Shown here in pieces: positions 1 to 18,864 of a stretch of 31,280 nt of DNA. The notes below the pieces were generated by a model. That model saw only the letters and a program-made list of their open reading frames with translations. It was not told the DNA's origin and did not search any database. Within the stretch, counting starts at the first letter, position 1; every line of letters begins with the position of its first letter. Made by a program: the position numbers and the translations under genes. Source of the stretch: a virus (taxonomy: Duplodnaviria > Heunggongvirae > Uroviricota > Caudoviricetes); IMG/VR virus record IMGVR_UViG_3300045988_033906, positions 1-31,280 of that record; one strand, 5' to 3'.

Positions 1-35
1 ACTTCAAGGAACCTTTTGTGAGTCAGGCAACCAGT

Positions 36-209
36 ATGCGAAAACGACACCGATTTAACAGTCGCATGACCCGTATCGTACTGCTCATCAGCTTTATCTT
101 CTTCTTTGGCCGTTTTATCTACTCGTCCGTCGGTGCCTGGCAGCACCATCAGAGCAAAAAAGAAGCTCAGCAATCCACACTCTCCGTCGAATCACCGGTA
201 CAACGTTAG
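36..209 (+). CDS. hypothetical small protein with one hydrophobic segment
   Basis: ORF-track frame 18-209 begins at GTG; first ATG at 36 gives MRKRHRFNSRMTRIVLLISFIFFFGRF... (basic N-terminus then hydrophobic stretch). No homolog recognised, no clear RBS. Confidence 0.25.
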   Translation: MRKRHRFNSRMTRIVLLISFIFFFGRFIYSSVGAWQHHQSKKEAQQSTLSVESPVQR

Positions 210-519
210 CGGTTACCTTCTCCACTTTCACAGAACCTAACGGCACTTCGCTGTCGGATGCTTTTGCTCTTTGGAATTATCAAAGCGGCAGATATTCTTT
301 CATCTTAAATTTTACGTCTTTGTCCTGACTGATGTTTATCCTGTTTGGCTGCGAAATAAATATAAAATTAATATATATGTTGTAATGATATATTTTTATA
401 AATTATTCCCTGCATGAATTTTAATAAATTTAATCTATCCCTTTATACGCAATACATTTACTTTCCTCTTTTGATGATCTTAAATGTCTTATTTTTCGTA
501 ATGTGTATAACAAGGAATA

Positions 520-1038
520 GTGATGAAATTTAAAAAATGTCTTCTGCCTGTGGCAATGTTAGCGTCATTCACTCTGGCAGGATGCCAGTCAAATGCTGAC
601 GATCATGCCGCCGATGTTTATCAAACCGATCAACTGAATACCAAACAAGAAACTAAAACCGTTAATATTATTTCCATTCTTCCCGCAAAAGTTGCCGTAG
701 ACAACTCCCAAAATAAACGGAACGCACAAGCCTTCGGCGCGCTTATTGGCGCAGTCGCTGGCGGTGTTATCGGCCACAACGTCGGTTCTGGCAGCAATTC
801 CGGAACGACGGCAGGGGCAGTTGGCGGCGGAGCTGTAGGCGCGGCAGCGGGTTCTATGGTGAATGATAAAACCTTAGTGGAAGGTGTTTCTTTAACATAT
901 AAGGAAGGCACCAAAGTGTATACCTCTACCCAGGTGGGTAAAGAGTGCCAGTTTACGACAGGTTTAGCCGTTGTTATTACCACAACGTATAACGAAACGC
1001 GTATTCAGCCAAATACTAAATGTCCTGAAAAGAGCTAA
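520..1038 (+). CDS. outer-membrane lipoprotein, glycine-zipper (SlyB/Pcp 17-kDa-antigen-like)
   Basis: Signal peptide with lipobox LAGC (MMKFKKCLLPVAMLASFTLAGCQ), then Gly/Ala-rich glycine-zipper segment (GALIGAVAGGVIGHNVGSGSNSGTTAGAVGGGAVGAAAGS) as in SlyB-family lipoproteins; RBS AAGGAA upstream; AT-rich promoter region 220-519. Confidence 0.7.
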   Translation: MMKFKKCLLPVAMLASFTLAGCQSNADDHAADVYQTDQLNTKQETKTVNIISILPAKVAVDNSQNKRNAQAFGALIGAVAGGVIGHNVGSGSNSGTTAGAVGGGAVGAAAGSMVNDKTLVEGVSLTYKEGTKVYTSTQVGKECQFTTGLAVVITTTYNETRIQPNTKCPEKS

Positions 1039-1053
1039 TAATCAGGAGGAGTC

Positions 1054-1593
1054 ATGAAGAAAGTTTTTCTTTGCGCCATCTTGGCCTCCTTAAGCTATCC
1101 GGCTATCGCCTCATCATTGCAGGATCAACTCTCTGCTGTAGCAGAAGCTGAACAGCAAGGTAAAAATGAAGAGCAAAGGCAGCATGACGAATGGGTCGCG
1201 GAGCGCAACAGGGAAATCCAGCAAGAGAAGCAACGTCGCGCAAATGCCCAGGCCGCCGCTAACAAAAGAGCGGCAACGGCAGCAGCAAATAAGAAAGCTC
1301 GTCAGGATAAACTGGACGCCGAAGCCTCTGCGGACAAAAAACGCGATCAAAGTTATGAAGATGAGCTACGCAGCTTAGAGATTCAGAAACAAAAACTGGC
1401 GCTGGCGAAAGAAGAAGCCCGCGTTAAGCGAGAAAACGAATTTATCGATCAGGAACTGAAGCACAAAGCTGCGCAAACCGATGTGGTGCAATCTGAAGCT
1501 GACGCCAACAGAAATATGACTGAAGGCGGTCGCGATCTGATGAAAAGCGTGGGCAAAGCAGAAGAGAACAAATCGGACAGCTGGTTTAATTAA
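1054..1593 (+). CDS. secreted/periplasmic charged coiled-coil protein (unknown function)
   Basis: Strong RBS AGGAGG 6 nt before ATG; N-terminal signal peptide (MKKVFLCAILASLSYPAIASS); remainder highly charged K/E/Q/A-rich helical repeats; 15 nt downstream of the lipoprotein gene, likely same operon. Confidence 0.6.
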   Translation: MKKVFLCAILASLSYPAIASSLQDQLSAVAEAEQQGKNEEQRQHDEWVAERNREIQQEKQRRANAQAAANKRAATAAANKKARQDKLDAEASADKKRDQSYEDELRSLEIQKQKLALAKEEARVKRENEFIDQELKHKAAQTDVVQSEADANRNMTEGGRDLMKSVGKAEENKSDSWFN

Positions 1594-1631
1594 TCGATGT
1601 TAGTAACTTCAAGCCTATGATTCTTGAAGAT

Positions 1632-1668
1632 AAAAAACCCTCTGTAGTAACAGAGGGTTTTGTTCATT
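1632..1668. terminator. bidirectional rho-independent terminator between convergent units
   Basis: Stem ACCCTCTG (1637-1644) / CAGAGGGT (1651-1658), loop TAGTAA, A-run upstream and TTTTGTT downstream, so a U-tract follows the hairpin on both strands; lies between the + strand lipoprotein operon and the minus-strand lysis cassette. Confidence 0.6.
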
Positions 1669-1812
1669 CATAGTGCAGGGATTAAAATCATTCCCACTCA
1701 ATTATTTACGGATAACATAAGCAATTGACTGGCAACAACTTTTAAAACATTTAAATTTTCCATACCGTTTTATATACCGTCACCGGAAATCAGTACCATG
1801 AAAAATGCCATG

Positions 1813-2295
1813 TCACCTGGTCAGCGAATCGTACTGCTTTTCACAGACTCGTCCGGCTTCGGATGCCCGATCAGCGTACTCTGCCAGTTGTCGGTTTCGC
1901 TCGAGAGATTTGCTGAGCACGTCGGCAAGCAAAACACCGGTGTCTGCGGCTGACGGCCCAGAGCCGACAATGGCGTTATACTGCCTGAGCTGCTCACGGA
2001 TGGCAACGAGCTGTTGCTGCAACCTGCCAGCGCGAGCGGCAGCATCAAGAGCATCATTGCGCGCCTGGTCGATCCTCTGCTGCGCTTCACGTTCATTGGT
2101 CGCTTTCTCCTGTTCGTCGTGCTTACGGGCTTTATCATCTTCTGCTTTACGATCTGCCTGCGCCTGAGCATACCCGGCGGCATACTGTCGGTCGCCGTGA
2201 ACATTCCACGCGACCACTCCACCGATAACCAGCGCAGCAAGCATCACTACGATAAGCAACTGTTTCCAGTACGCTTTGACGAATGCCAAGATCAT
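1813..2295 (-). CDS. Rz-like i-spanin (inner-membrane spanin subunit)
   Basis: Last gene of lysis cassette; N-terminal TM segment ([18 protein letters not shown]) followed by charged coiled-coil periplasmic domain; start ATG overlaps endolysin stop (ATGA); contains an embedded lipoprotein frame (Rz1). Confidence 0.7.
1821..2057 (-). CDS. Rz1-like o-spanin (outer-membrane lipoprotein) embedded in Rz in another frame
   Basis: Within ORF-track frame 1821-2240: internal start [17 protein letters not shown]... gives a 78-aa lipoprotein with lipobox LALAGC and Pro/Ser-rich mature part; alternative start at 2096 ([17 protein letters not shown]...) also possible. Fully embedded in Rz, classic Rz/Rz1 architecture. 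Confidence 0.55.
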   Translation of the reverse strand: MMLLMLPLALAGCSNSSLPSVSSSGSITPLSALGRQPQTPVFCLPTCSANLSSETDNWQSTLIGHPKPDESVKSSTIR

Positions 2296-2921
2296 AACGC
2301 CAGCGCCTTACGGGCAGTACCGTAACGCGCCCGCCTGTCGTCGATGCCGTTCTGGCCACCGTTAATGATCTGCGTGACGCGCACCAGGTCGCCGGTGTAC
2401 TTCATGCAACCTTTACTGGCGAAGAACCACGCCGCGCTACGGGCCGCATACTCATCCTGCGCCAGCAGTTCAGGCTGAGCAACCAAATCAACCTTCAGAC
2501 CATTGCCGCAATCCCGGTAGTTGTTCAGACCGGTGATCTGAATAAGCCCGCGCCCTCGGTAATTCCAACCGTCGCCCGGTCCGTTGTTTCCCATGCGCTT
2601 GCTGTACACTAGGTTGGCGATCGCGCGCTGGCGTTCCAAAGGCAGAGACTTCTCATATGTTTTTCGTCCCAGCGCGTTGGCCTGGTCCGGAGTGATGCGT
2701 CCGGCGCGGATAAACCCGGACAGCCCGTTTACGCTGTAGTTGAAGTTCTCCTGTAACCGGGTAAACCCTCCTGACTCATGCCCGACCTGTGCAATAAACA
2801 TCGCCTGGTCATCTGGCTTGGTAATACCAAACTCATTCATTGCTACGGTGATATGTGGATACCAGCGCGTGGCCAGTTGTTCAGTGATGCCGGCTGCGCG
2901 CCGGAACTGGTTAATGTCCAT
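2292..2921 (-). CDS. endolysin, glycoside hydrolase family 19 (chitinase-like lysozyme)
   Basis: 209 aa; motifs QVGHESGGF and [16 protein letters not shown] typical of GH19 phage endolysins; RBS GAGG upstream of ATG at 2921; sits between holin-like genes and Rz. Confidence 0.85.
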
Positions 2922-3219
2922 GTTGAGACCTCGATATTTTGAATATCTGCACGACGTTACCGCGCGTCTTCAGGACGGCGGCAAGCATGACAGCGTTGAT
3001 GATGACCTCTGATAAATCAGCGGCCATTGGCGTGTGATACCAGATTGCGTATGCGGCGCGGACGGGGATACTGGCTGACGCCACGATAAGGAAGTAGGCT
3101 ATCCACCCACCCCACCGGCGATGTTGCGATCCATTTCGCCGGAAGGTTCCGACGCGGATTGCTATCGCAGAACAGATAACCGCATTGGCAATGAGTAAAA
3201 GCAGCTCATGAGTTGTCAT
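2911..3219 (-). CDS. holin/antiholin-like small membrane protein
   Basis: 102 aa with about three hydrophobic segments; RBS GGGGAG before ATG at 3219; overlaps endolysin start by 11 nt; position immediately upstream of endolysin. Confidence 0.5.
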
Positions 3220-3610
3220 CGTCTTTTCTCCCCGGGATTAAATCGCGTGGATTGTCTGAACGGTGATAGAGCCAGATACCAATACGTACTGCGACGATTG
3301 CCGACACGAACGCGCCAGCAGAGAAGACGATCCCTTTCTCGAAAGAGTCCTGCGTGATAGTTGGGATCAGGCTGGCTACGCCGATAAGGATTGATGCAGT
3401 TGGTTTGTAGAAGAGAAGCCCGCATAAAAAGCTGAGCATCGACAGGAGAACCCGGCGGCGTATTGGATACTCAACGGCTGAGGTAATAAATATTACCGCA
3501 CCAGATAAAGCACCAAGCGCCACTTCGGGAGGAACTCCGGCGACAACTGCAGCCAGTGAACCCATGCTAAGCCACTGATTTAAAGACTCACTGGTTAGCT
3601 GGGCTGACAT
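3206..3610 (-). CDS. holin-like membrane protein
   Basis: ORF-track start at 3619 is GTG; first ATG at 3610 (MSAQLTSES...) preceded by GGTGG; 134 aa with several hydrophobic segments; first gene of lysis cassette. Confidence 0.5.
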   Translation of the reverse strand: MSAQLTSESLNQWLSMGSLAAVVAGVPPEVALGALSGAVIFITSAVEYPIRRRVLLSMLSFLCGLLFYKPTASILIGVASLIPTITQDSFEKGIVFSAGAFVSAIVAVRIGIWLYHRSDNPRDLIPGRKDDDNS

Positions 3611-3781
3611 AGTGACCACCGTTTACTGTGCATAAAAACCCCCTTAGTTGGTGAGTTCATCATACACAATAAACCATATATGGAGTAAATTACCTAAGAT
3701 AACTCCTACCAAAATTACCTTTAAGGTGATATGCTCTGTACAATTATTAATATACCGATAAACAAATAGTGAAGAAATATA

Positions 3782-4873
3782 ATGTTTACACCATCAATTA
3801 TTTCTATTGCATTCTCTTTGTCTATAATTATATTTTTTATAGCTTTAACTTATCCTGTTAGGAAATTAGTATATCAAAACGAAAAATTAAACCACTCAAT
3901 TGAAGGGCTCAGGGGTATCGCATGTATACTTGTATTTGTAAATCACTCAGCATGGATGCTGACAAACAATCATGTTGAGTCTGCAAAAATTGATTATACA
4001 AACTTCAATTATTTTGGTAATTTTGGTTCATTTGGGGTTGAATTATTTTTCTGTATAACAGGGTATCTTTTTTCTTCAAAAATAAAAAGTGGTGAGTTTG
4101 ATATAGAATTCTTTGGTAAGAGGATTAAAAGACTGGCGCCAGCTTATTTATTTGTGTCATTAATAACATTTATTCTTTTTATTGTAAAATACAACAATCT
4201 AATAGTTACTTTTGATGATATATCAAGAGTTATACAGCAGATATTTGGGTTTGGTTTTTTTGGTTCTGGAATTAGAGTGCAGGGTAGCACAATAACATCT
4301 CTAAATGCTGTGGTGTGGACGTTACCTTTCGAATGGAAGTTTTACGCAGCTATACCATTTATAGCATATTGCTTTAGAAGAAGAACAATTCTAATACCAT
4401 TATTTATATTTTCATTCTTTGTTATATATTCTCAGTACGCTGAAGATAATACGCTGTGGGTGTACTTTATAACTGGGTTTATCTGTTCTTATATTAAACC
4501 ATGCAAGAATAAAATTCTTTGTTTTGCATGTTCTATATCAGCTCTAGTTCTGATTATATATATTATATTAAGTAACTATTATCAATACAGCGCAATGAGG
4601 GTTATACCTATTAGTGCATTTTTTATTCTTTGCGTTTTTTCCAATCCAAAATGGATAAAAATAAAACCATTATCAATTGCTGGAACTCTTAGTTATAGCA
4701 TATATCTAACACACCAAGCGGCAATGTTTTGCATTGTTAACATAGCAAGCATTTTATTTAATGATTTTGATTTCACAACAGTCCATTTATTAATCTTAGC
4801 AATTATTTCAGCAATTTTAACGATTATCGCATCATTGCTCTTATACTCTAAGATTGAGAGAAGGTTTATCTAA
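3782..4873 (+). CDS. acyltransferase family 3 integral membrane protein (O-antigen acetyltransferase-like, candidate seroconversion gene)
   Basis: 363 aa, about 10 hydrophobic helices; N-terminal AT3 signature with conserved Arg/His (IEGLRGIACILVFVNH); gene is strikingly AT-rich compared with flanking phage genes; opposite strand to the late operon, between tailspike and lysis genes (typical moron slot). Confidence 0.8.
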   Translation: MFTPSIISIAFSLSIIIFFIALTYPVRKLVYQNEKLNHSIEGLRGIACILVFVNHSAWMLTNNHVESAKIDYTNFNYFGNFGSFGVELFFCITGYLFSSKIKSGEFDIEFFGKRIKRLAPAYLFVSLITFILFIVKYNNLIVTFDDISRVIQQIFGFGFFGSGIRVQGSTITSLNAVVWTLPFEWKFYAAIPFIAYCFRRRTILIPLFIFSFFVIYSQYAEDNTLWVYFITGFICSYIKPCKNKILCFACSISALVLIIYIILSNYYQYSAMRVIPISAFFILCVFSNPKWIKIKPLSIAGTLSYSIYLTHQAAMFCIVNIASILFNDFDFTTVHLLILAIISAILTIIASLLLYSKIERRFI

Positions 4874-4877
4874 AAAC

Positions 4878-4908
4878 AAAGCCCCATTATAAACGGGGCT
4901 TTTATTTT
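4878..4908. terminator. bidirectional rho-independent terminator
   Basis: GCCCC (4881-4885) / GGGGC (4894-4898) stem flanked by A-run and TTTTATTTT; serves convergent acyltransferase (+) and tailspike (-) genes. Confidence 0.6.
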
Positions 4909-7018
4909 AAATGTGACAAGTAAAACTTAGTTCTATTGTTGCATTTCCTGTAATTAAATCAGATATTAAAACATCAACTGGGCTGCCAGACCTAAAAATC
5001 CTTCTAAAAAATATTTTACCCCCACTTATGTATCCTTGCACATCAAGAAGGTTTGAATCAGTTCTTATTGTATTGTTTAATATTGGTATAATAGATCCAA
5101 CACAATCACCTTTGAAAGAACTTAAATATGTAGGTAATGATATAGCAAAAGCTAAAGATCCAGTATTGCTGGTGATGTTGCATGATATTGAAAGTCTGCC
5201 AGTAACACTTCTTTGGGTAATTTCATGCCTATAAATCTGAGATGTGTATGTGCAAGGTGCGTTTATTGTTGGGTTGAACCCAGTTGACTGAGGGAAAACA
5301 TAGAAGCTTTGTAAGTTACCACCAGACACAGTGGTATTGATTGGTGTTGCTGAACCAGCAAACACATATACTCCATCATCTTCTATACCAGAAACATCAG
5401 AACTAACTGGTTCTTTAATGTTATTTTCTGTCCCGCTAATATAAAACACCTTTCCATACTTAGGACCATCATTAACATGAAAAAGAACTCTTGGACCAAT
5501 TAGGTTGTTATTGAAACCAGATATTACATACCCAATCCCACCGTTAGATATACTGGCTGGTTGCGTCTTGTCAAGTTTATGCGGGGTGTCAGAATAAAAA
5601 TTAACAACATTATTTGAGCTGCCTCCTAGTTTTAATCCTATCAACATTACGCGTGTTGTTCTTATGCCATCCAGTCCCCATACATGCGTATTAACTATAT
5701 CATTGGCCCCACCTGTTATTTCCATACCGACAGGATAACCAACCACTGTAGTATTAACATACATACTATCAGACGTACGATGCAATATCCCACTAACGCC
5801 AGATGTTCCAAGCTGGTCTTCCGGAGCTACAACTGATGTATTATTGAATTTCCACTCATAACCTTTTTCAACATTAATACCTCCATTTAGCATGTTGAAT
5901 ATTCTTGCGTTATTTATTACAGGACCAACGCCATCAGTACCATAAATACCTATCGCAGAGACAGATGAGTCAGGCTCAATATACAGATTATCAAGTAGAA
6001 CCCTGTTACCAGTCTGAATGGCTGTTATTCCATCATTGTATGGAGCCCTCCAAGCATCATCCTTTATCTCTATAACAACCGTATCAGTAAAATTTTTTGG
6101 AACAATGGAACCGATATTCTCCATTCTCGCTCCACTTTTCAGAACAAGCCGAGAAGATATACATGTTTTACCAATGAATAATACAGCTCTTTTATTATCT
6201 GAAGACCAATCAAGAGCTTGCTGATTAGGAATGGTATCATCATCAATACCATTGCACTTAGCTCCAAATGAACGGTTTGTAATACAATCGGTCAGCACAT
6301 CTTCAACAACTCTAGTTGGAAATCCAGCAGGGCCAAATCCAATCAACCCTGCACCGGTTGGTTTTGCCAGCTCAATTAACACATCGGTGGCGCTACCTGA
6401 TGGGGGTAATGTTGTAAACGGCTGGCCAGCGCTATCAAAAGCAACAATTTTGTTTGCCCTGGAAATCGCATCAGGAAGAGCTTGAATAGCTTCAGGTGTT
6501 CTTAGTGTTTTGTTGAGGTTTGTATCCGCAACGCTATCAACATAATTTTTTGTTGCCGCATCCTGCGGGCGTGAAGGATCTCGCAGGTTTCTGATGTAGT
6601 TATTAAGAGCATCATAATAGTTAGCCACGAACGAAGGCTTTCTGAGGGCCAGACTCAACAAGCTGCGTACCTGCTGTATCAGCATCGTCAGTTTATCAAA
6701 TGCGTCTTCATGCACCTCAGCGAAGAACTTACCCTGGTTGCGCAGATCGGTTTCCTGCGTAACCGGTAGCTCTCTTGATATAGAAATCTGATAACCGTTA
6801 GCCAACGCCTTCGACAGAATTACATTACCACCGTTATACCCTCCCGCCCCGGTAACTGTGTAATCAGTATCAAGAGCAAGAACAGTGATATTTTCATCAA
6901 GGTCAACCACTTGCACTACCAGATCAGATTTCTGGAAAATCCTGAAAGTATACGGAAATGATGTCGTAACGCCGTTACCGGTGTATTCGTTGTGGTCAAC
7001 TTCGGTTGAGACCGTCAT
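4907..7018 (-). CDS. tailspike protein: T7 gp17-like N-terminal particle-binding domain fused to a beta-helix (polysaccharide depolymerase-like) receptor-binding domain
   Basis: 703 aa; N-terminus (MTVSTEVDHNEYTGNGVTTSFPYTFRIFQKSDLVVQVV...DTDYTV) follows the conserved pattern of podovirus tail-fiber N-domains; remainder Gly/Asn/Ser/Thr-rich repeats typical of parallel beta-helix; RBS GGAG before ATG 7018; 3' (C-terminal) half is AT-rich like the adjacent acyltransferase. Confidence 0.85.
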   Translation of the reverse strand: MTVSTEVDHNEYTGNGVTTSFPYTFRIFQKSDLVVQVVDLDENITVLALDTDYTVTGAGGYNGGNVILSKALANGYQISISRELPVTQETDLRNQGKFFAEVHEDAFDKLTMLIQQVRSLLSLALRKPSFVANYYDALNNYIRNLRDPSRPQDAATKNYVDSVADTNLNKTLRTPEAIQALPDAISRANKIVAFDSAGQPFTTLPPSGSATDVLIELAKPTGAGLIGFGPAGFPTRVVEDVLTDCITNRSFGAKCNGIDDDTIPNQQALDWSSDNKRAVLFIGKTCISSRLVLKSGARMENIGSIVPKNFTDTVVIEIKDDAWRAPYNDGITAIQTGNRVLLDNLYIEPDSSVSAIGIYGTDGVGPVINNARIFNMLNGGINVEKGYEWKFNNTSVVAPEDQLGTSGVSGILHRTSDSMYVNTTVVGYPVGMEITGGANDIVNTHVWGLDGIRTTRVMLIGLKLGGSSNNVVNFYSDTPHKLDKTQPASISNGGIGYVISGFNNNLIGPRVLFHVNDGPKYGKVFYISGTENNIKEPVSSDVSGIEDDGVYVFAGSATPINTTVSGGNLQSFYVFPQSTGFNPTINAPCTYTSQIYRHEITQRSVTGRLSISCNITSNTGSLAFAISLPTYLSSFKGDCVGSIIPILNNTIRTDSNLLDVQGYISGGKIFFRRIFRSGSPVDVLISDLITGNATIELSFTCHI

Positions 7019-7121
7019 GTTAAATCTCCAGATAGTTGCAGCACCCGTTGCGCCGCATATCTGGTTATTCTATTACCTGAAAAACCACATATGGATAGAA
7101 AGACTGTAAATACGAATAGAT

Positions 7122-7138
7122 ATTACCTTTCTGGTAAT
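7122..7138. promoter_or_regulatory. perfect inverted repeat ATTACC-N5-GGTAAT (candidate operator), copy A
   Basis: ATTACCTTTCTGGTAAT at 7122-7138; same IR architecture recurs at 23733-23747 and 30377-30393 (and weaker at 30316-30330); about 40 bp upstream of the LexA box. Confidence 0.4.
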
Positions 7139-7176
7139 TTGCAAAACGTGCTGGATAGCAAACAAATTATTTGCTA

Positions 7177-7192
7177 CTGTATAAATATACAG
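7177..7192 (+). promoter_or_regulatory. LexA (SOS) box overlapping probable promoter of the 85-aa gene
   Basis: taCTGTATAAATATACAGtt matches the enterobacterial LexA consensus TACTGTATATATATACAGTA at 18 of 20 positions; contains TATAAAT (-10-like); RBS GGAG at 7202-7205 and ATG at 7214 follow. Confidence 0.65.
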
Positions 7193-7213
7193 TTATTGCA
7201 TGGAGAAGATAAG

Positions 7214-7471
7214 ATGCAGCAGTATCACTATCCACTGGAAGACGGATTTACCGAAAGGATTCACACGCCGGGAGGCGTCAGGTCACTGGTGGAGGGATCG
7301 CACTTGATGAAATTACTCCGGGATCTCGATAAGGATGGATTTAATGTCGATGGCCCACTTGCCGAACTGACTGCACTGATTAACTACGTCACCAGCTCAC
7401 AGATGTCTATGCAGGATCTGCAAACACATCTCGACTATTGTGCCGAACAATTACGAAAACAAACCACATAA
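7214..7471 (+). CDS. SOS-regulated small protein of unknown function (85 aa); candidate antirepressor-type moron
   Basis: ORF-track frame 7091-7471; internal ATG at 7214 has RBS GGAG 8 nt upstream and sits just downstream of the LexA box; MQQYHYPLEDGFTERIHTPGG...; no homolog recognised; opposite strand to the late operon. Confidence 0.6.
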   Translation: MQQYHYPLEDGFTERIHTPGGVRSLVEGSHLMKLLRDLDKDGFNVDGPLAELTALINYVTSSQMSMQDLQTHLDYCAEQLRKQTT

Positions 7472-7477
7472 AGAAAA

Positions 7478-7493
7478 GGCCGCGAAAGCGGCC
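7478..7493 (-). terminator. rho-independent terminator (minus strand; may also stop the + strand moron)
   Basis: GGCCGC GAAA GCGGCC hairpin; on the minus strand it is followed by TTTTCTTTAT; lies between the 46-aa minus-strand ORF and the + strand 85-aa gene stop (7471). Confidence 0.55.
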
Positions 7494-7494
7494 T

Positions 7495-7506
7495 GTGACA
7501 TGTCAC
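7495..7506. repeat. 12-bp perfect palindrome GTGACATGTCAC, copy 1 of 3
   Basis: Identical 12-mer also at 24688-24699 and 27139-27150; here it lies between a stop codon and the terminator hairpin. Confidence 0.5.
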
Positions 7507-7513
7507 GCTCACG

Positions 7514-7654
7514 TTATGACAAACCTATATACCCTGCTACACCAGATAATATCAAAACAACTGCAACAGCAAATTCACCATCACCAATGATACATTTACG
7601 GTTCATAACGCCAAGTGCAACAAGAGCGAACACAACGAGAATAAAAGCAATCAT
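7514..7654 (-). CDS. unannotated 46-aa hydrophobic micro-protein (two predicted TM segments)
   Basis: Below ORF-track size cutoff. ATG at 7654 with AAGGA about 6 nt upstream, immediately after the stop (7664-7666) of the 824-aa gene; translation MIAFILVVFALVALGVMNRKCIIGDGEFAVAVVLILSGVAGYIGLS; followed by the palindrome and terminator. Confidence 0.45.
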   Translation of the reverse strand: MIAFILVVFALVALGVMNRKCIIGDGEFAVAVVLILSGVAGYIGLS

Positions 7655-7663
7655 TTCTCATCC

Positions 7664-10138
7664 TTATTGCGGAGTGACATCCTGCGGTCGCCACCAGTAT
7701 GTCTGATTAAACTCTTTCTTCGAACGTTGCTCCATTTTACGCAAATAGCCTGGTGAAAAATACTCCTGCATCTGGTTAAAGATCATGTGATCGAGAGCCG
7801 CCTTCAAGTACCAGAGATTCGCACCTGGCATCAGCCCCTTCCCAAGCTTAACCAGATCACCACCAGTCTGCTCATTCTTCCCTTCCACAGCATTTAACGG
7901 TATGCCCTGAGCAATCTTCACTACGTCATCAACCAGACCAGCTACCGGGCCAAGCATCGACGCCAGCGCGCCGCTTCCGTACCTAGTGTGATCTGACAAT
8001 AAAAAGTCACCGTAAAGGCCAAGACCACCACCTTTCAGTAGAGCACCAAGCCAAAATTTAGCAGCATCTTCCCCCGTCATCTCGCGAGGATTACGACCAG
8101 ACGCAAGGTCGTTAAGTTGCTGCGACAAAGCGCCAAGAATGGTCGTACTGGCAATAAACGTCGCAATATATGCCGCACGCCCACCAGCAGACGGCATCCC
8201 CATAGCGCGTGACCAGTGACGCATAACAACCGAGATAGGGAACGATTTAAACAGGAAAACACTTCTCGTTAATTCACCTTTCCATGTTCCACGCTGAATA
8301 CCAGAACCGGTTATCAGTTGCTCACGTGCTCCCGGTGTAATAACAGCCATATCAATTTCTTCAGTTACGGCACCGAGCAGTTTACGCATTGCCTCAAATT
8401 TCACGCGTTCAGGCTCACCAAGATGTTTAACTGCTGAATCAGGGATACGCATAATGCTTTCCGGTGTCAGCATCGTATTATTACCGTTCCCCCAGTCCTC
8501 CTGTTGCGCCAGCTTCCATACGCTCCAGTCTGTGTCAGTAATCCCTTTGCTTTTCAGGATACGAAAATCAGAGTCATCGAGGCTACGAAGGTCTGGTGTC
8601 CGTGACACTACTTCTCCCAGGCTTCCCATCATAGTTACGCCATAGGCGCGCTTGTGCGCATCTGACCATGCTGTAAGCCCACTGGCACGCATTACCGCCG
8701 TTGCCGCCCAACGAGACACAGACGGCCCCATATTATCCATCGCCCAGCGGTTAACGCTGCCAAGTAGAGATTCCATCGCCAGACCAGCTCGGCGCGCCCG
8801 CGCAAGCTCAGTACGGTTCGTTGGGTCAATAGCTTCAAGCTGGTTGCGGAATAACTGGTTCATTGGAAGGTTGGTAACCTTCGCAGACAGATACATGGTT
8901 CCAAGATCAGAGAACGATGACAGCAACGCGGATCCGAGTCTGCTGGCAACCAGCCAGTTGCGGATATTGTCAGACCATCGCGCGATGTGCGGATTCGCTA
9001 CAGGCTGTGTCTTTCCGGAAATAAAGTTGTACAGATTCTCTGTGTTGTTCGCCAGCCGCTCGACTTTACCGGTTTTACTCGGGTTAGCTGTTGCCGTTTC
9101 TGCCTTAACCTGATCAAGAAGGGAGCGGAAAACATGATCGGGGTTTGGACCATATGTTTCCACCAGTGCAATATCTTTACTGATACCTTCCAGGTGACCG
9201 ACCATGATTTCCCATAGAGAGCGATCGCCATAAAGTTGCTGATATTGCAGATAGGAATCTGCATCTTTGAAATGTATCTGTCGTGATGCATTACCACGGT
9301 TAGCACGTGCGCCGGAAATTCGCATTCCGGTATCAGTAAGCTTATTCAGCCCACCAGTAGCGATCGTGTTATAAGCCTCTCCAAGAAATGCAGACAACTC
9401 GGCATCGTTCATCAGTTGTCCATCGGCTCGGATATAATATTTGCGATCCAGCTTACCTATAACATCGCTAACCCACTTATCCTTTGATACCGCCCCAACC
9501 TTTTCCATAGAATGATGTTGAGGGATCCCCCAGTTTTCGAGATAGCCAATGTCCCCACCAGCATCATTAAACCGGCGGCGCAGTAGCTCTGTCACTTCTC
9601 TCCACGCCTTAGCACCTTTTCTTGCTTTAGCATTGCCAGTATTTTGCCCCCGCATTTCATATACCAGGTCACGTACGCCCGCTTCATCTTCAAACAGACC
9701 AAAAAAGCGAGGATCAACTGCTTCGAATGCCTCCTGCAATTGACTCAATGCATAATCACGGGTGGCTTTTGTTCTGGATTCAACAGAGAGGAAATTCGAT
9801 TTACCGTCTGCATTAAAAGCAATAGTACGGTTAAGAGCGCCAAGTTTCCCATCAGCCCCTTGATAGCTATTGATAAATTTATCCAATCTCTGACGTGCGG
9901 CTATAGTGAGGGCCACACGACGTTTCTTTAATGCCGCTTCTCGCTGTAATTCTTCAGATGCCAATTGTGCTGCACGATATAGCCGCTCTGATTCGGAAAG
10001 TTGTCTCCACGACATCGTGTCATCACGAGCAATGGAGCGCATATTTCGATAAATGCGGTCTTCAATGTTCTGTATTTCTCGCGCCGTTAACGTGCGCTGC
10101 GCCGCCTGCTGGACCGCTTGTATACATTCCTGTCTCAT
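7664..10138 (-). CDS. internal virion / ejection protein (large)
   Basis: 824 aa; RBS GAGAGG before ATG 10138; last of a run of large genes between tail tubular genes and tailspike, the position of T7 gp15/gp16-type core proteins; no enzymatic motif recognised. Confidence 0.7.
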   Translation of the reverse strand: MRQECIQAVQQAAQRTLTAREIQNIEDRIYRNMRSIARDDTMSWRQLSESERLYRAAQLASEELQREAALKKRRVALTIAARQRLDKFINSYQGADGKLGALNRTIAFNADGKSNFLSVESRTKATRDYALSQLQEAFEAVDPRFFGLFEDEAGVRDLVYEMRGQNTGNAKARKGAKAWREVTELLRRRFNDAGGDIGYLENWGIPQHHSMEKVGAVSKDKWVSDVIGKLDRKYYIRADGQLMNDAELSAFLGEAYNTIATGGLNKLTDTGMRISGARANRGNASRQIHFKDADSYLQYQQLYGDRSLWEIMVGHLEGISKDIALVETYGPNPDHVFRSLLDQVKAETATANPSKTGKVERLANNTENLYNFISGKTQPVANPHIARWSDNIRNWLVASRLGSALLSSFSDLGTMYLSAKVTNLPMNQLFRNQLEAIDPTNRTELARARRAGLAMESLLGSVNRWAMDNMGPSVSRWAATAVMRASGLTAWSDAHKRAYGVTMMGSLGEVVSRTPDLRSLDDSDFRILKSKGITDTDWSVWKLAQQEDWGNGNNTMLTPESIMRIPDSAVKHLGEPERVKFEAMRKLLGAVTEEIDMAVITPGAREQLITGSGIQRGTWKGELTRSVFLFKSFPISVVMRHWSRAMGMPSAGGRAAYIATFIASTTILGALSQQLNDLASGRNPREMTGEDAAKFWLGALLKGGGLGLYGDFLLSDHTRYGSGALASMLGPVAGLVDDVVKIAQGIPLNAVEGKNEQTGGDLVKLGKGLMPGANLWYLKAALDHMIFNQMQEYFSPGYLRKMEQRSKKEFNQTYWWRPQDVTPQ

Positions 10139-10143
10139 TTAAT

Positions 10144-11946
10144 TTAACCTCTCAAGAAACACGCCACAGCGACATCAAACAGGCTGGAATCCTGTATTGC
10201 CTGCTCACTTTCCCTGTTCGCTTCATCCAGTACTTCACGCGCGCTGCGCGATTGTGGATTACCATCATCATCCAGCACGGTGATTATCATGTCCGGAGAT
10301 TCAAGCAGCGAGTCTTCAGCTATACGCAGATCAATATCTCCTGCCGGATCTGCCATCATTTTTTGTTCTGTCTGTTGCAATATCTTACCGGGCTCAAAAG
10401 GAGCTACTTCGTCTGGCGTCCTGACCTCTGCTGTTTTATAGAATGAAACAGCCTGAGTATTAAGTTCACTTTCTGCCTGCTGTCGCCGTGCCAGTTCTGC
10501 TCGAGCTTCAAAAAACTGACCGCCAGGCTCATGCGGTGCCAACGCGTTACGGGAAAATTCCAGGCGTTCTTGTGCCTGCCGGATTCGTTGGTCAATATCG
10601 CGAAGTCTGGCCTGTTTATCTGATCGAGCACGAGATAAAGCCTTACCGCTACCGGTTGGCTCTTCTGCAAGAATTTGTGCGCGCTGTTCAGTGAGATTTT
10701 CAATAATTCGTTGGCTATTAGCGATTTCAGACTGGTAAACCTGTCTATCGCCACGCGGCAAAAGCTGCGCGGCCTGTTCTTCAAGCAACCGATTTTCTAT
10801 AGCGCGCGCCGTTACTCCATCATCTACAGATGACAGAGCCTCATTAACTGCCTGAGACAGCAGACTCCTGTGCCCAGGAATTTCACTGAAAGATGCAGAC
10901 TCAACAATGCTGGCAACGTCTACAGGTCTCCCCTGGCTAACATCAGACATGGCTTTTCGCAGAGCCTGAATGTGCGAATTACGCGAAAGCACGTTGATCG
11001 GAACGCCGGGAGCAATATCAATTTCAGCATGATGAGCGGCATTCGCCGCCAGTGCAGCATCGATATCAACTGGTGAAAAATTTGGTGCGCTTGTAGACTC
11101 GCCGCGAGAGTTAATAAATCTGCCGACACCACCAAACGCCACCCCAAGAACAGCATCAATAGCAATTGCCTGTCGATCCAACACATCATACTGGTTAGCC
11201 ATTTCGCTATAGCCACCATCACGAAGCGTTTTTGCAGTAAGCCCACGCTGTGCCATACCGAACGCAATATTTGTACCTGCGGCATAGGCAATATCTGGCG
11301 TTGCACGTACTGCTGTTGCTGCGGCGCGTCGCACTGAACTTTCACCCGTCCGCGCAAGCTGGGCCGCCACACCTTCCGCCAGCGCACCACCAGCACGTAA
11401 CCCGAGGCTCATAGGGATCAGTGTTCCGGCACCAGCAGTAATACCCTGCACTAATCCCGCTTCCTGCGCCGTCCTGAAATCAACACCCTGTGCTGTCAGC
11501 CGTTCAAACTCAGAAAAACCCTGTAGAGAAGTTACCGCCGCAGCACCTCCGACCGGACCACCGAGCGTTGTACCGACAACAGCCTGCCCTCCCATATCGA
11601 ACAACCCATAAAGGACCTGCCCGGCGGTTCCGGTTGTCGCGGCATCAGGCGTCAGCCGCTTAACCTGCTGCTCTGCTAGTTTTCTCTGCTCGGCAATGTA
11701 TGAAACTGAAGTGTCATTGAGCGAGGTGTTTTCGTTAACAAACTGAGCAATCGGGGATACGATTTTATCCACCCCTGCCCATAGCAACTGATCTGGCTTT
11801 GCCACCAGCCCGGAGTACAAACCAGACAATGCCGCTCCTACAGCATTGTCGAAAAAACCAACATCGCTGTTAAAGCCAGCTGGATTTGATGCTGCTTCGT
11901 CAAGCTGCTGATTCTGGTTTACTGGATTAAGGCCAAAGTAACTCAT
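10144..11946 (-). CDS. internal virion / ejection protein, Gly/Ala-rich with coiled-coil C-terminal part
   Basis: 600 aa; ATG at 11946 overlaps stop of upstream gene (ATGA); position in ejection-protein block. Confidence 0.65.
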   Translation of the reverse strand: MSYFGLNPVNQNQQLDEAASNPAGFNSDVGFFDNAVGAALSGLYSGLVAKPDQLLWAGVDKIVSPIAQFVNENTSLNDTSVSYIAEQRKLAEQQVKRLTPDAATTGTAGQVLYGLFDMGGQAVVGTTLGGPVGGAAAVTSLQGFSEFERLTAQGVDFRTAQEAGLVQGITAGAGTLIPMSLGLRAGGALAEGVAAQLARTGESSVRRAAATAVRATPDIAYAAGTNIAFGMAQRGLTAKTLRDGGYSEMANQYDVLDRQAIAIDAVLGVAFGGVGRFINSRGESTSAPNFSPVDIDAALAANAAHHAEIDIAPGVPINVLSRNSHIQALRKAMSDVSQGRPVDVASIVESASFSEIPGHRSLLSQAVNEALSSVDDGVTARAIENRLLEEQAAQLLPRGDRQVYQSEIANSQRIIENLTEQRAQILAEEPTGSGKALSRARSDKQARLRDIDQRIRQAQERLEFSRNALAPHEPGGQFFEARAELARRQQAESELNTQAVSFYKTAEVRTPDEVAPFEPGKILQQTEQKMMADPAGDIDLRIAEDSLLESPDMIITVLDDDGNPQSRSAREVLDEANRESEQAIQDSSLFDVAVACFLRG

Positions 11947-15001: not shown

Positions 15002-15465
15002 TATTTTCTCTCCATGTGAAATCTGTGGAAATTAAGACCAAGAGCACCATAAGGCGCGGCTTCTTCAAGCCTGAATCCAAGCCAGTGCAGCCATGCTTTG
15101 GCAACATGGTTTCGCTCGTCGACGTAGTTTTCCAGGCGCGGATAAACTGCCAGCATCTGCTGCAATACAGGGCGGCAGTGGCGAAGAAATGTCTTCTGAT
15201 ATTTTTCAATACGGCTGGTTCCTACCAACCATGGCGTACCATTGCCACCGATCATTGACGCCGGAGATACGCCAAACATGGTTACCAGTTCTCCGTTCGC
15301 AAATCCTGACCAGGCCATAGTCGCAGTGCGAAGACCAACACGCAGCGCATCTTCGGTAGTCATCAGCGATACCGCATACAGTTCGTCAATATCAGCCTGA
15401 CGAACATCCGGCAAAATCATCTGAAGATGCTCTTCGGTAGCGGGAATAATTTGAACATCAATCAT
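15001..15465 (-). CDS. internal virion / assembly protein (T7 gp13-like by size and position)
   Basis: 154 aa; ATG 15465 overlaps stop of tubular B gene (ATGA). Confidence 0.55.
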   Translation of the reverse strand: MIDVQIIPATEEHLQMILPDVRQADIDELYAVSLMTTEDALRVGLRTATMAWSGFANGELVTMFGVSPASMIGGNGTPWLVGTSRIEKYQKTFLRHCRPVLQQMLAVYPRLENYVDERNHVAKAWLHWLGFRLEEAAPYGALGLNFHRFHMERK

Positions 15466-17936
15466 CAGAATCCCCCAACAGTAAGGCGAGGAATAACGGC
15501 AAGAACAGACAGCGGCAACGGGTCAAGCTGACGGATTCTTACGCGTCCGTTTTTACCCCAGTTACTGTCCAGTTTCACTTCTACTTTTCCGGTAGCGTCA
15601 TCAACAGGATCATCGTAGAACTCGAATTCACGCTGTGGATATTCGTACCATTTACCGCCGGGCGTAGTCGCCCAGATGCCGCGACTGGCATTCACAACCA
15701 GAGTAACGGACGGGATCACCTGTTTTTTGTCCAGCAGCGTTTCCTGTCCGTTAATGTTGATATCCAGTGTTTCGAATTCAGCAGTTATTGGCAGGCCGAT
15801 GTGCACTACAGCCCCCGGAGATTCCAGCGTGACGGCACCTCCGGAAACCACTTTCTGTGGTTCCACGTTCGCATCAGAGAGAATGTTTACGGTCTGGCCT
15901 TCAAGATGAGACAGGCCTCCAAATGTCCGGCGCGCCATCTGCCAGTTCGTGGTGGCCACATTCCTGAGGGATAGCGGGACGTTCCTGTTAGCACGAACCA
16001 CTACTGCGGTATTACTGGTTACAGAAATAATGTCGCAACGTAATTCTTTTGACACTTCATCGCCAGTATCAGGATCAGTTCCGGTATAAGGGAACTGTAG
16101 TTGCGCGCCGACATCACTACTGGTGAAGTACGCACCACCAGAAACACTGATTGTATATTCCGCACGGTAATCCCATTCACCAGAACCACCAGTGATGGTC
16201 ATCGTTCTGTCAGACGTATTTCTTCCATCATAGCTAAGGCCAGAATCAACAAAGAAAGCATCTTCATCGCTGGTAAATAAACGACTGGACAGTCTCTCGA
16301 TGTATCTCACTGTTTGCCCGTTAACGGTTCTGTTAACGACGAAATACACCGCATCTTCATTGCCTTCGCTGATACTGCATGTGCTTTCATATTTTCCGGT
16401 ACTGGATTGTGGTGCCCATGCAAAAACCTGCTGATCACGCAAATAGGTCATCACCAGTAATTTACCGTCATCACGAATGCAGAAGGCGCTGGAGTAAGGG
16501 ACAATCGAGAAGCACCAGTCAACAATGCTGTGCTTCTGAAAAAGATGATTGGCAAGGATAGTCAGGTCGTTCCCCTGATAGCCGTCAACATCGAATGAAT
16601 AGGCCAGATCACGGACAACACTGCCTTTCTCCTGGACGAACAGAGCAATATTCGCCACAGCAATTGGTGGGACGTTGCTCGAGCCATTTGATCCCTGAGA
16701 GCTGAATGCAAATGATGATGGGGTTAACACTTTGTTCTGGTCGCCGGTGATGACGTACTCACCTCCGGAAGTCAGTGCCACCAGCGAACCGACATCAATC
16801 AGGTGGCGGATCTCATTAACCTGACGCCCGGCATAGGTGTAGATAATTCTGTCGTCATCCTGCGTAGGATTGCTTTTGCCAAAATCCTTATAATCCCCGG
16901 TACGGCTGGCCCAGATAGTCTGAGGGAACGCAGTCGATGCGGCGAAGTAAAGACGTTGTTGATAATAAACAACAGTGCCAGGATAACCATTAACACTGTT
17001 CCAGGCATATTTAGCCCATTTATAGCTGGCATTATCCTCGCCAACTACCTGCGAAGGGATATAGGAAATCACCTCGGCAGTTGCAGTAGTTCCATTTGCA
17101 GCAGTGATACGGGCAATGCCAAAACCACTGTGCAGATATTCCCACTCAATGCCAGTATCATCATCACCGGATCCGCCCCAGCCATCCCATGATGTGCCTT
17201 CTGTATGCGAAGGGCGCAAAGTGCCTGTTTTGCCTGCTGTAACGGCGCGATAGTAGTTACTGTCTGCACGGCGAATATCGCCAATCGACGTACTCTTACT
17301 GGTTTCCCATACCTGCACTGAATCCACTGCAGGCTGTTCCAGATAGAACAATTTGCCTACCTGCTCCGCGCCAAAAATAGAGGCGCTTGCCGTTAACGTA
17401 ATTGTCCCGGTGCTGGCGCTGGCATAAACCGTCACTGACTCGTCAATATTGATATCTTCAAATGGCCCGTTCTTCGTTACCACATCAACCAGTTGCCAGT
17501 TGTCATGCGCATAGCGACGCAACTCTTTCGGCGGGTATGCCGGATGAACCAGCGTAAGCACGTCTGCGCTTTGCGTGAATTTAATTCGGAACAGATCGGC
17601 TTCAGTATATGGAGTGGCAATTTCATAAATAACATTGCTGCTGTTCAGCACCAACGCACCATCTTTGATAACGCGCATGTACTGGTGTCCGAACTCCAGA
17701 GCATAGGTCTGAACCGTCGAGAACTGGAACGGGATCAGGCGGCATTTCCGATTTTGGTATTTGGCGGCACCGACAAAACGCGTACCAGGTCGATTCTCAA
17801 CGCCGCCATACTGCCGCACGATAAAGTTATCGCACTTGCGCAATGCCACCTGGTACTTCGCCATGTCGATACGTCCGTACAACGACGGTCCAATCTCACC
17901 ACCAGCAAAGCTGGGCTGGATCCAACTGATAGCCAT
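15465..17936 (-). CDS. tail tubular protein B-like (nozzle)
   Basis: 823 aa; N-terminus MAISWIQPSFAGGEIGPS...GVENRPGT parallels T7 gp12 N-terminus (MALISQSIKNLKGGISQQP...GLQKRPPL); follows the gp11-like gene with ATGA overlap. Confidence 0.75.
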   Translation of the reverse strand: MAISWIQPSFAGGEIGPSLYGRIDMAKYQVALRKCDNFIVRQYGGVENRPGTRFVGAAKYQNRKCRLIPFQFSTVQTYALEFGHQYMRVIKDGALVLNSSNVIYEIATPYTEADLFRIKFTQSADVLTLVHPAYPPKELRRYAHDNWQLVDVVTKNGPFEDINIDESVTVYASASTGTITLTASASIFGAEQVGKLFYLEQPAVDSVQVWETSKSTSIGDIRRADSNYYRAVTAGKTGTLRPSHTEGTSWDGWGGSGDDDTGIEWEYLHSGFGIARITAANGTTATAEVISYIPSQVVGEDNASYKWAKYAWNSVNGYPGTVVYYQQRLYFAASTAFPQTIWASRTGDYKDFGKSNPTQDDDRIIYTYAGRQVNEIRHLIDVGSLVALTSGGEYVITGDQNKVLTPSSFAFSSQGSNGSSNVPPIAVANIALFVQEKGSVVRDLAYSFDVDGYQGNDLTILANHLFQKHSIVDWCFSIVPYSSAFCIRDDGKLLVMTYLRDQQVFAWAPQSSTGKYESTCSISEGNEDAVYFVVNRTVNGQTVRYIERLSSRLFTSDEDAFFVDSGLSYDGRNTSDRTMTITGGSGEWDYRAEYTISVSGGAYFTSSDVGAQLQFPYTGTDPDTGDEVSKELRCDIISVTSNTAVVVRANRNVPLSLRNVATTNWQMARRTFGGLSHLEGQTVNILSDANVEPQKVVSGGAVTLESPGAVVHIGLPITAEFETLDININGQETLLDKKQVIPSVTLVVNASRGIWATTPGGKWYEYPQREFEFYDDPVDDATGKVEVKLDSNWGKNGRVRIRQLDPLPLSVLAVIPRLTVGGF

Positions 17937-18541
17937 CAGGACAACCTCGCAATGGTAAACTCATCAACCGGTGGCTGTGGTTCCTGTGATTCATTCTGGC
18001 TATGCGAGCCAGCACTAAGAATCACGCGATTGTACATATTGAGGGCAAACGTACCGAGGTCTGCATTCCCAGTCAGCGCCATGTTAATAGCTGCCGCAAG
18101 ACGCCAGGCCAACGCCTCCATAAAAATGGCATCAAACATGTTCACATCTGTAACGCGAGAGACATACTTGAGCCATGCCTGAGGCTGGTCTGTGTAGATC
18201 AACTTTCCTGTTCCGTTGGTGTCTGCACCAACTTCGTACTGAACGCGCATTGCTGCTGTTGGATTGCGTACACCAGGAAGCATAATTTCAGTAATGCGCA
18301 GACAATCGGACGGGTACTGGTATGCGTATTCCCAGTCTGGCGGCGGATTGTTCGTATCTGCAAGCGTCACGCGTTTGGTAGCAAAGTTCCAGTCAAAATC
18401 AGAAAGCACAGCATCACGGCAGGCCTCAAAGTGCAGCGAACATTCCCCCGCTTCCTTGCTGGCTTCCGTCAGGCTGTTAATGCTGCGGCTGTTGCCAATA
18501 TTGGACAGCGCACGATTACAGATCTCTACTACAGAGGCCAT
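17936..18541 (-). CDS. tail tubular protein A-like (adaptor/gatekeeper)
   Basis: ORF-track start 18544 is GTG; ATG at 18541 overlaps upstream stop. 201 aa; N-terminal region (EICNRALSNIGNSRSINSL...DWNF) resembles T7 gp11 (AVNDILASIGEPPVSTL...GWTF). Confidence 0.7.
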   Translation of the reverse strand: MASVVEICNRALSNIGNSRSINSLTEASKEAGECSLHFEACRDAVLSDFDWNFATKRVTLADTNNPPPDWEYAYQYPSDCLRITEIMLPGVRNPTAAMRVQYEVGADTNGTGKLIYTDQPQAWLKYVSRVTDVNMFDAIFMEALAWRLAAAINMALTGNADLGTFALNMYNRVILSAGSHSQNESQEPQPPVDEFTIARLS

Positions 18542-18864
18542 CACTCACCTCCGTTACCGTACAGAGTTTCAGCCGCTGATTTTTCTACATCCCCGGAAAC
18601 AGGAGCGATCGCCATATCAGTGATCTGCAGATCGGCGCTGCGATTAACGCCATCGTCAGTTTCTCTGGCAGACAGGCCTCGAATAACAGCCTTTGCAGTT
18701 ATCATCACTTCTGTTCCGACGCCCTGAGGTTGCGCCTTCAGCTTATTCAATGTGTCGTTATTAAGAGTGATGCACAGCCCCCACGGGTATTCATCGCGAG
18801 TTCTGGTTTCTCCGCTCTCATCCTGGTAGCTGTCAGTGCCGGTTTTGAGGTTTACGAGTTCCAT
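18541..18864 (-). CDS. hypothetical virion-module protein
   Basis: ORF-track start 18870 is GTG; ATG at 18864 has RBS AGGAG 6 nt upstream; 107 aa; no homolog recognised. Confidence 0.5.
   Translation of the reverse strand: MELVNLKTGTDSYQDESGETRTRDEYPWGLCITLNNDTLNKLKAQPQGVGTEVMITAKAVIRGLSARETDDGVNRSADLQITDMAIAPVSGDVEKSAAETLYGNGGE

Follow-up and report, generated by a model that had tools for sequence, protein, structure and literature searches.

The 31,280-nucleotide viral record analyzed here (IMG/VR IMGVR_UViG_3300045988_033906; the window) is a phiV10-like (Uetakevirus) prophage of Escherichia coli, and we focused on its tailspike gene and the gene convergent with it. The backbone between positions 7100 and 27000 was 97.8% identical to phiV10 across 99% of its length. 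The capsid protein belonged to the Pfam family GP7 (epsilon15 type), the portal to PF12236 (T7 type), and one further protein was T7_gp14-like. Two more proteins, of 202 aa (17936..18544) and 823 aa (15465..17936), had no Pfam match but are similar in size to the T7 adaptor and nozzle. Genes were arranged in the same order as in phiV10, with an 824-amino-acid (aa) virion protein followed by small genes, the tailspike, a convergent Acyl_transf_3 gene, holins, endolysin, and spanin; the tailspike thereby occupied the position typical of Uetakevirus, between the 824-aa virion protein on one side and the conversion and lysis genes on the other. At five of the six loci inspected, host genes were found beyond the lysis genes (a DUF5384 protein, a glycine-zipper lipoprotein, a MASE1-EAL protein, ppx, and ppk). 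The tailspike gene (4907..7018, minus strand) was an intact open reading frame (ORF) of 703 aa with an ATG start, exactly matching these coordinates, and its product was assigned to PHROG tail fibre and tailspike families (phrog_1640, E = 3.8e-151). The exact protein was indexed in 38 blocks of the collection, for which 23 contigs, including three NCBI E. coli assemblies, were read; an assembly artefact or chimera was rejected because of this recurrence. Carriers of the exact gene include the assemblies GCA_009869035.1, GCA_005393015.1, and GCA_003291575.1 as well as SRA runs. No record in the phage database matched the tailspike protein at ≥80% coverage, nor did any of the 5426 complete E. 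coli genomes carry the gene at this coverage.

Comparison with homologues showed that the tailspike consists of two modules with independent histories, which meet sharply at a conserved motif. In a BLAST matrix of both modules covering 120 database homologues, the junction was located at residue 215/216 in all cases, separating an N-terminal virion-anchor module of the epsilon15/phiV10 type (residues 1-215; 6374..7018, minus strand) from an exchangeable receptor-binding body (residues 216-703 and the stop codon; 4907..6373, minus strand). The homologue P0070 was 100% identical over residues 1-215 and had no detectable similarity over residues 216-703, P0005 was 97% and 56% identical over the two parts, and P0004 of Enterobacter cloacae was 38% and 98.8% identical, respectively. 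P0006 carried a different N-terminal module with PF18668 and no anchor similarity, together with a 95% identical body. The ends of N-anchored BLAST alignments to relatives peaked at residues 220-229, and L217 and G222 were almost invariant in the junction zone (residues 208-228, GSATDVLIELAKPTGAGLIGF; 6335..6397, minus strand). The original prediction, made from the DNA sequence, had described a conserved N-terminus of roughly 120 residues joined to a divergent distal part. The division itself was borne out by P0070 and P0004, and the two parts matched different sets of homologues without uniform similarity to a single family, but the conserved module extends over 215 residues.

Both modules were found in many combinations. 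An exhaustive search with residues 1-215 returned 31,291 cluster representatives at E ≤ 1e-3, of which 670 reached E ≤ 1e-30. Identity over residues 1-215 was at least 71% in each of the 150 best representatives, although every one of them stands for a separate 50%-identity cluster. The bodies on 187 anchor-carrying proteins fell into no fewer than 119 groups that share no BLAST similarity with one another. Conversely, the body of the window was found on five other anchor types at 79-99% identity, in anchor classes including the TSP1/gp66, P22, true T7, and Ackermannviridae types. Bodies with 79-87% identity were carried on the P22 head-binding domain (PF09008) in numerous E. coli prophage proteins of 604 aa, on a PF18668 anchor in a siphovirus-type prophage next to gtrABC, on PF03906 combined with PF18668 in a genuine T7-like phage of 39 kb that has RNA polymerase and gp13-16, and on the Ackermannviridae tailspike protein 3 (TSP3) anchor of phage AV101.

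The DNA breakpoints of the exchange were located by comparison with two prophages. L028, a sister prophage that encodes P0070 and occupies the same site in the E. coli chromosome, was 99.1% identical over window positions 1-3695 and 97.1% identical over 6345-11000, whereas it had no similarity over 3696-6344, where it carries another body and another acyltransferase of 382 aa. L027, a prophage of E. cloacae whose backbone is otherwise unrelated, showed 97.7% nucleotide identity over 3706-6397 only, and outside this region its sole similarity was one weak protein match of 25%. Since these two maps are complementary, the exchanged unit is a cassette of approximately 2.65-2.7 kb (3706..6397), with L027 identity inside and L028 identity outside. 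Besides the tailspike body, beginning at residue 208-224, it includes the hairpin between the two genes, the acyltransferase gene itself, and approximately 76-86 bp on the upstream side of that gene. The right-hand breakpoint was at approximately nucleotides 622-674 of the tailspike gene, where L027 and L028 homologies end in the junction zone, and a three-way alignment placed the crossover within the K-P-T-G-A-G codons of the conserved motif DVLIELAKPTGAGLIGF (hereafter the DVLIELAKPTGAG motif, also written LAKPTGAGLIG).

The same boundaries recurred with a second cassette. Prophages L032 and L034, which have the same two backbones, shared 98.5% identity over 2641 bp, in a block that runs from nucleotide 622 of the tailspike gene, the same start as for the first cassette, to 82 bp upstream of the start codon of the acyltransferase. 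This cassette is unrelated to that of the window: its body is 56% identical, and its 342-aa acyltransferase has no similarity. These data demonstrated that a low-GC two-gene cassette has been exchanged across unrelated prophage backbones and genera, and we infer that the exchange occurred by homologous recombination at two short conserved flanks. The proposal that the tailspike is a recombinational mosaic was thus confirmed by complementary DNA maps and by a second cassette with the same ends. The proposed swapping of a receptor-binding module was correct as far as the body is concerned, but the exchanged unit is larger and also holds the adjacent acyltransferase gene.

The left boundary of the cassette coincided with a near-palindromic 27-bp element (3706..3732; ATATCACCTTAAAGGTAATTTTGGTAG in the minus-strand reading), located approximately 50-76 bp upstream of the acyltransferase start codon, at which L027 homology ends; L028 homology resumes at 3695. 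The element was common to two unrelated cassettes in two unrelated backbones, with one copy per locus, and phiV10 contained only a diverged version. It could be a promoter or operator that doubles as a homology patch for recombination. Two results weigh against a general role of the element at cassette boundaries: scanning IMG/VR and one genome per species for the exact pattern yielded no copy, and complete E. coli genomes gave no BLAST hit to a 43-bp query that includes it, a search in which low-complexity masking is possible.

The second gene of the cassette (3782..4873, plus strand) encodes a membrane acyltransferase of 363 aa, a putative O-antigen acetylase. Its match to Acyl_transf_3 (PF01757) covered the full-length domain (profile positions 1-325 of 326; 111.3 bits against a cut-off of 31 bits), and it matched a PHROG O-acetyltransferase family with E = 7e-43. 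The protein was 97% identical to the product of the gene beside the 99%-identical body in E. cloacae. A terminator scan detected a hairpin between the two convergent genes (4878..4902) with an 11-pair stem, AAAGCCCC...GGGGCTTT. The hairpin is flanked by T-runs on both sides, is likely a bidirectional intrinsic terminator, and is conserved beside tsp3 of AV101. By analogy with known conversion genes, the acyltransferase may acylate the O-antigen recognized by the spike in lysogens, thereby masking the prophage receptor against readsorption and superinfection. The oac gene of phiV10 is annotated as acetylating the O-antigen and conferring superinfection immunity, and GtrC of BTP1 protects against the convergently transcribed tailspike of the same phage (PMC4413052).

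An alternative explanation is that the tailspike body alone is the unit of exchange and that the acyltransferase gene adjoins it by chance or moves independently. Lytic phages carrying only the body (the T7-like phage, Lewi, and AV101) and the siphovirus-type prophage, which has gtrABC beside the body instead, are consistent with this explanation. So are the identities in the prophage L033, which also weigh against strict linkage in the cassette: compared with the window, its body was 95% identical and its acyltransferase 67%, and compared with a P22-like TST3 prophage, the corresponding values were 84% and 94% (loci compared: L033:6001-8975, L003:6911-9848, and window 3782-7018). These discordant identities show that the exchange can also break between the body and acyltransferase genes, which implies that further crossovers took place in or close to the hairpin. 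In contrast, both recent transfers, which are independent of each other (97.7% and 98.5% nucleotide identity), were unbroken two-gene blocks with the same ends, a convergent Acyl_transf_3 gene was present in all five temperate podovirus-type contexts with this body family that were examined (the window, L027, L003, L032, and L034) as well as in L033, and AV101 still has a fragment of an acyltransferase gene. We therefore consider the body by itself unlikely to be the unit of exchange and favor the two-gene cassette.

The fragment in AV101 (L001; OQ973471.1) lies at approximately 9470-9700 on the minus strand of the locus, and consists of a truncated Acyl_transf_3 remnant and the shared hairpin just downstream of tsp3. 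The remnant comprises the last ~66 codons of the gene (...SIAGTLSYSIYLTHQ...KVEKKFI*), is homologous to window positions 4671-4906, and matched the Pfam profile at positions 267-325 of 326 (E = 2.6e-4). Because this remnant adjoins tsp3, it implies that AV101 gained the receptor-binding domain of TSP3 from a temperate cassette of body plus acyltransferase. The study describing AV101 used protein similarity alone to propose recombination with prophages or virulent phages, and does not mention the acyltransferase remnant (PMC10791037). A more general proposal would be that the body and its cognate acyltransferase form a discrete, recurrent cassette of ~2.65 kb that recognizes a receptor and masks it, is delimited by the DVLIELAKPTGAG codons and the 27-bp element, is traded whole by unrelated temperate podovirus lineages across genera, and feeds the receptor-binding domains of lytic phages. 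We put this broader scheme forward tentatively, at slightly under even odds.

Next, we focused on the structure and probable function of the body. The region of approximately residues 240-570 (5309..6301, minus strand) forms a right-handed parallel beta-helix, as in the beta-helix tailspike depolymerases (pectin-lyase fold), in agreement with the beta-helix proposed initially. It is followed by a C-terminal beta-sandwich (approximately residues 580-703; 4910..5281, minus strand; predicted strands at 589-702 with predicted local distance difference test scores [pLDDT] of 84-95), which was always co-inherited with the beta-helix. By analogy with solved tailspikes, the protein, which was modelled as a monomer, is probably a trimer. 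Residues D417, Y428, H445, W447, R456, Y475, D477, and K481 were invariant in 67 close and five distant (25-27% identity) relatives, and Y327, Y596, and the N-cap D260 were further invariant residues of the body. D417, H445, and Y475/D477 are spaced by 28-32 residues and lie on consecutive predicted rungs, and this spacing fits, as expected, a groove along one face of the helix. On the basis of conservation, D417, H445, W447, R456, Y475, D477, and K481 (5576..5770, minus strand) are candidate active-site or binding rungs. The structure prediction therefore yielded the beta-helix that had been anticipated, and catalytic residues at the level of candidates only.

The target of the spike can be predicted from its closest characterized relative. 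The body was 87% identical over 488 residues to TSP3 of AV101 (WJJ54145.1), starting from the same LAKPTGAGLIG motif. In purified form, TSP3 of AV101 produced translucent zones on strains of O153 and smaller ones on O8, and reduced plating of AV101 on an O153 host by ~5 logs (PMC10791037). Because of this 87% identity, our best prediction for the target is the E. coli O153 O-antigen or a close relative, which the body, by analogy with TSP3, most likely binds and cleaves. Several observations weigh against this assignment. The 13% of residues that differ from AV101 TSP3 could shift specificity, and TSP3 is weakly active on O8 as well. The body matched no Pfam family even at E ≤ 10, and no glycosidase or lyase family or catalytic motif was found in it; its structural neighbours included both hydrolases and lyases.

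The protein might instead be a non-enzymatic adhesin that binds the O-antigen without cleavage, as the absence of a catalytic motif or Pfam glycosidase/lyase family from residues 216-703 would allow and as some beta-helix structural neighbours that are adhesins, such as PfbA, illustrate. However, translucent zones on O153 lawns are the standard depolymerase read-out, and they were obtained with the closely similar purified TSP3 (PMC10791037); moreover, the invariant D417, H445, Y475, and D477 are stacked on successive rungs. A purely adhesive spike is consequently improbable, and we retain an O-antigen depolymerase as the likely function of the body.

The anchor module was closest to tailspikes of epsilon15-like phages, with identities of 83% to Salmonella phage 66FD, 78% to phiV10, and 69% to epsilon15 (residues 1-285). 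In the phage database, residues 1 to approximately 227-285 matched epsilon15-like tailspikes at 69-83% identity, and PHROG profiles of approximately twenty tail fibre and tailspike families matched residues 1 to approximately 160-290 only. The whole tailspike protein had no Pfam match at E ≤ 0.01, and residues 1-215 alone scored 18.4 bits (E = 0.0018) against the T7 tail fibre family PF03906, under its gathering threshold of 25.2 bits. BLASTP of the anchor against T7 gp17 gave no match.

More sensitive comparisons revealed a distant relationship to T7. Alignment of a profile of 19 diverse anchors with one of eight T7-family N-domains (hhalign) gave a probability of 95.5% (E = 1.5e-8), with residues 8-155 (6554..6997, minus strand) collinear with residues 7-149 of T7 gp17 at an identity of only ~20-23%; alignments that were shallow and near-identical gave ~1% probability and were uninformative. 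The anchor of P0004, a full-length relative at 38% identity (hhalign 99.9%), passed PF03906 with 31.9 bits. A search of PDB sequences with a 12-sequence anchor profile detected Carin-1 Dpo31 D1 (7e-74), LME-1 orf22, PhiM1 gp47, the cyanophage P-SCSP1u fibre (2.6e-4), N-terminal tail fibre chains of T7 (8e4g and 8dsp; ~8e-4), and full-length T7 gp17 (E = 0.024; residues 10-156 against 9-150), all above noise. Dpo31 D1 was homologous to residues 1-130 (E = 2.9e-26) and is located at the virion base in the cryo-electron microscopy map of Carin-1 (PMC13317679). As the full-length AlphaFold model was poor over the anchor (pLDDT 30-58), a separate model of residues 1-240 was built; it had a pLDDT of 84-88 at residues 10-85 and was only moderately confident beyond them, which tempers the structural comparison. 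In Foldseek, the N-domain model, a beta-sandwich with a long helix, matched Carin-1 8ck1_B (3e-11) and T7 gp17 (7ey9_a, 9e-5; 7boz_a, 1.1e-4), and the 24 best matches were all podovirus tail-complex proteins, nearly all of them N-domains of fibres or spikes. The conserved neck of the anchor (residues 156-215) was related to a segment of the Klebsiella KN1 depolymerase (9m4d, E = 1e-8).

The anchor is therefore T7-type in fold and distant ancestry, and its immediate family is that of epsilon15 and phiV10 (Uetakevirus). The T7-type anchor of the original prediction holds at the level of superfamily and fold, as judged by hhalign, the PDB profile search, and Foldseek, and does not hold for the immediate family. 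True membership in the T7 tail fibre family, with the element being a T7-like phage or its remnant, could be argued from the sub-threshold PF03906 score, the T7-type portal, the gp14-like protein, and the T7 gp17 fold matches. It is very improbable in view of the failed gathering score, the empty BLASTP result, and a genome that is not of the Autographiviridae type, having an epsilon15 GP7 capsid, a phiV10 backbone, and a site of integration next to host genes; furthermore, the genuine T7-like phage with the same body has a different, PF03906-positive anchor.

Conservation of the anchor was uneven: prophages and phages whose backbones are ~98% identical (phiV10/L031) carried anchors of just 78-83% protein identity, and among phiV10 (L031), ZX5, phiv142-3, and HEMP4, some lost megablast-level nucleotide similarity after the first 119 nucleotides. 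This uneven similarity indicates further breakpoints inside the N-terminal module, at approximately residue 40 and at residues 160-177.

Base composition changed at the module junction. The GC content was 0.402 for the whole tailspike gene and 0.485 for the window, and the GC content at third codon positions (GC3) fell from 0.44 in codons 1-215 to 0.25 in codons 216-703 (Fisher p = 6e-7), which substantiates the earlier description of the distal part as compositionally distinct and AT-rich. The adjoining acyltransferase gene had a GC3 of 0.24 and a GC content of 0.296, seven other phage genes of the window had GC3 values of 0.42-0.62, and the low-GC tract was unbroken from ~3620 to ~6370. Low GC alone is no proof of foreign origin, because tailspike bodies, unrelated ones included, had a GC3 of 0.25-0.32 in each context examined. 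This uniformity would suit a distal part that diverged in place under diversifying selection and AT drift while fit to the tail held the N-terminus constant, but such a history is refuted by the identity of exactly one block with L027, from another genus and on an unrelated backbone, by the lack of detectable similarity in the same span of the 97-99%-identical sister L028, and by the recurrence of the boundaries with a second cassette.

Taken together, we interpret the gene as the tailspike of a phiV10-like E. coli prophage, composed of an anchor and an O-antigen-targeting body, in which the body and the acyltransferase were gained as one low-GC cassette of ~2.65 kb (probability approximately 0.88). 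In the proposed mechanism, the anchor (residues 1-215), with a T7 gp17 N-domain fold followed by a short neck, would dock the spike on the tail, as suggested by the virion structures of T7 and Carin-1. The body, with its beta-helix and C-terminal beta-sandwich, would bind and most likely cleave an O-antigen predicted to be O153 or near it, and the convergent Acyl_transf_3 enzyme would acylate the same O-antigen in lysogens and mask the receptor, in the manner of phiV10 Oac. The cassette would have entered by homologous recombination at two short conserved sites, the DVLIELAKPTGAG codons and, at the opposite end, the 27-bp element that precedes the acyltransferase gene.

Several known systems resemble this arrangement in part. 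PhiV10, with PhiV10p25 and Oac, shares the backbone, gene order, and anchor type (78-83% protein identity), but its body has no BLAST similarity to that of the window, its acyltransferase is barely related (33% over 95 aa), and it targets O157, whereas the spike of the window is predicted to target O153 or a similar antigen. Epsilon15 gp20 is similar in its N-terminal module and in virion type (GP7 capsid) and differs in its body; a 2026 epsilon15 preprint describes a barrel with protruding esterase domains. TSP3 of the agtrevirus AV101 shares the body and the downstream terminator, but has another N-terminal module of 160 residues, assembles into a branched TSP complex, and belongs to a lytic phage (Ackermannviridae) in which only the truncated acyltransferase remnant is kept, while the gene in the window is complete. 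The N-domains of T7 gp17, Carin-1 Dpo31 D1, Kp9, PhiM1, and the P-SCSP1u fibre share the fold, approximately 150 collinear residues, and a presumed tail-docking role; relative to T7 gp17, with its low identity and sub-Pfam-threshold score, the anchor of the window adds the conserved neck at residues 156-215.

P22, Sf6, and phiV10 are known examples of modular tailspikes or adjoining conversion genes. The tailspikes of P22, Sf6, HK620, and BTP1 likewise combine a particle-binding domain with a beta-helix and are accompanied by a convergent O-antigen-modifying gene (gtrABC or oac) that shields the O-antigen of the lysogen against the spike of the same phage (PMC4413052). The body of the window occurs at 79-83% identity in P22-like E. 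coli prophages, together with an acyltransferase; P22-type phages differ in having the PF09008 anchor, with the junction at residue 116/117 instead of 215/216.

Modular tailspikes, cross-family transfer of receptor-binding domains, and conversion genes beside tailspike genes are established (PMC10791037; PMC4413052), and this mosaic is of a well-known kind, a clear but ordinary case of change in phage host range. Modest additions here are boundaries at base-pair level from two cassettes, recent cross-genus transfer, the short conserved boundary element, and the acyltransferase remnant of AV101. The tailspike body sets the O-serogroup that can be infected, and the linked acyltransferase probably alters the O-antigen of the lysogen. 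The boundary at residue 215/216 (LAKPTGAGLIG motif) is a natural splice point for chimeric spikes. The O153-type body is found in nature on six different anchors, and from the similarity to AV101 TSP3 the host serogroup of a whole set of prophages can be predicted in a testable way. Together with the fossil in a lytic phage, the two-gene cassette constitutes evidence at the sequence level that receptor-binding domains pass from temperate phages to virulent ones.

Additional variation was observed elsewhere in the prophage. The segment between the tailspike and the 824-aa virion gene (7019-7663) was polymorphic: phiV10, L010, and L032 contained an insert of ~1 kb or larger holding a Bro-N (antirepressor-like) gene upstream of the tailspike, whereas the window lacked it, and the ORF at 7091..7471 of the window matched phrog_450 and the C-terminus of an anti-repressor PHROG. 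At the sixth of the loci inspected (L011:15639-22112; GCA_003291575.1), integrase, AlpA, RepA_C, and NikA-like genes were found beyond the lysis genes, where a second integrative element may have inserted at the prophage end. Lastly, the ORF at 11943-14531 of the window encodes 862 aa from a GTG start and was called as 837 aa or 935 aa in the near-identical prophages L007-L012, suggesting start-site ambiguity or indel polymorphism in a putative internal virion protein.

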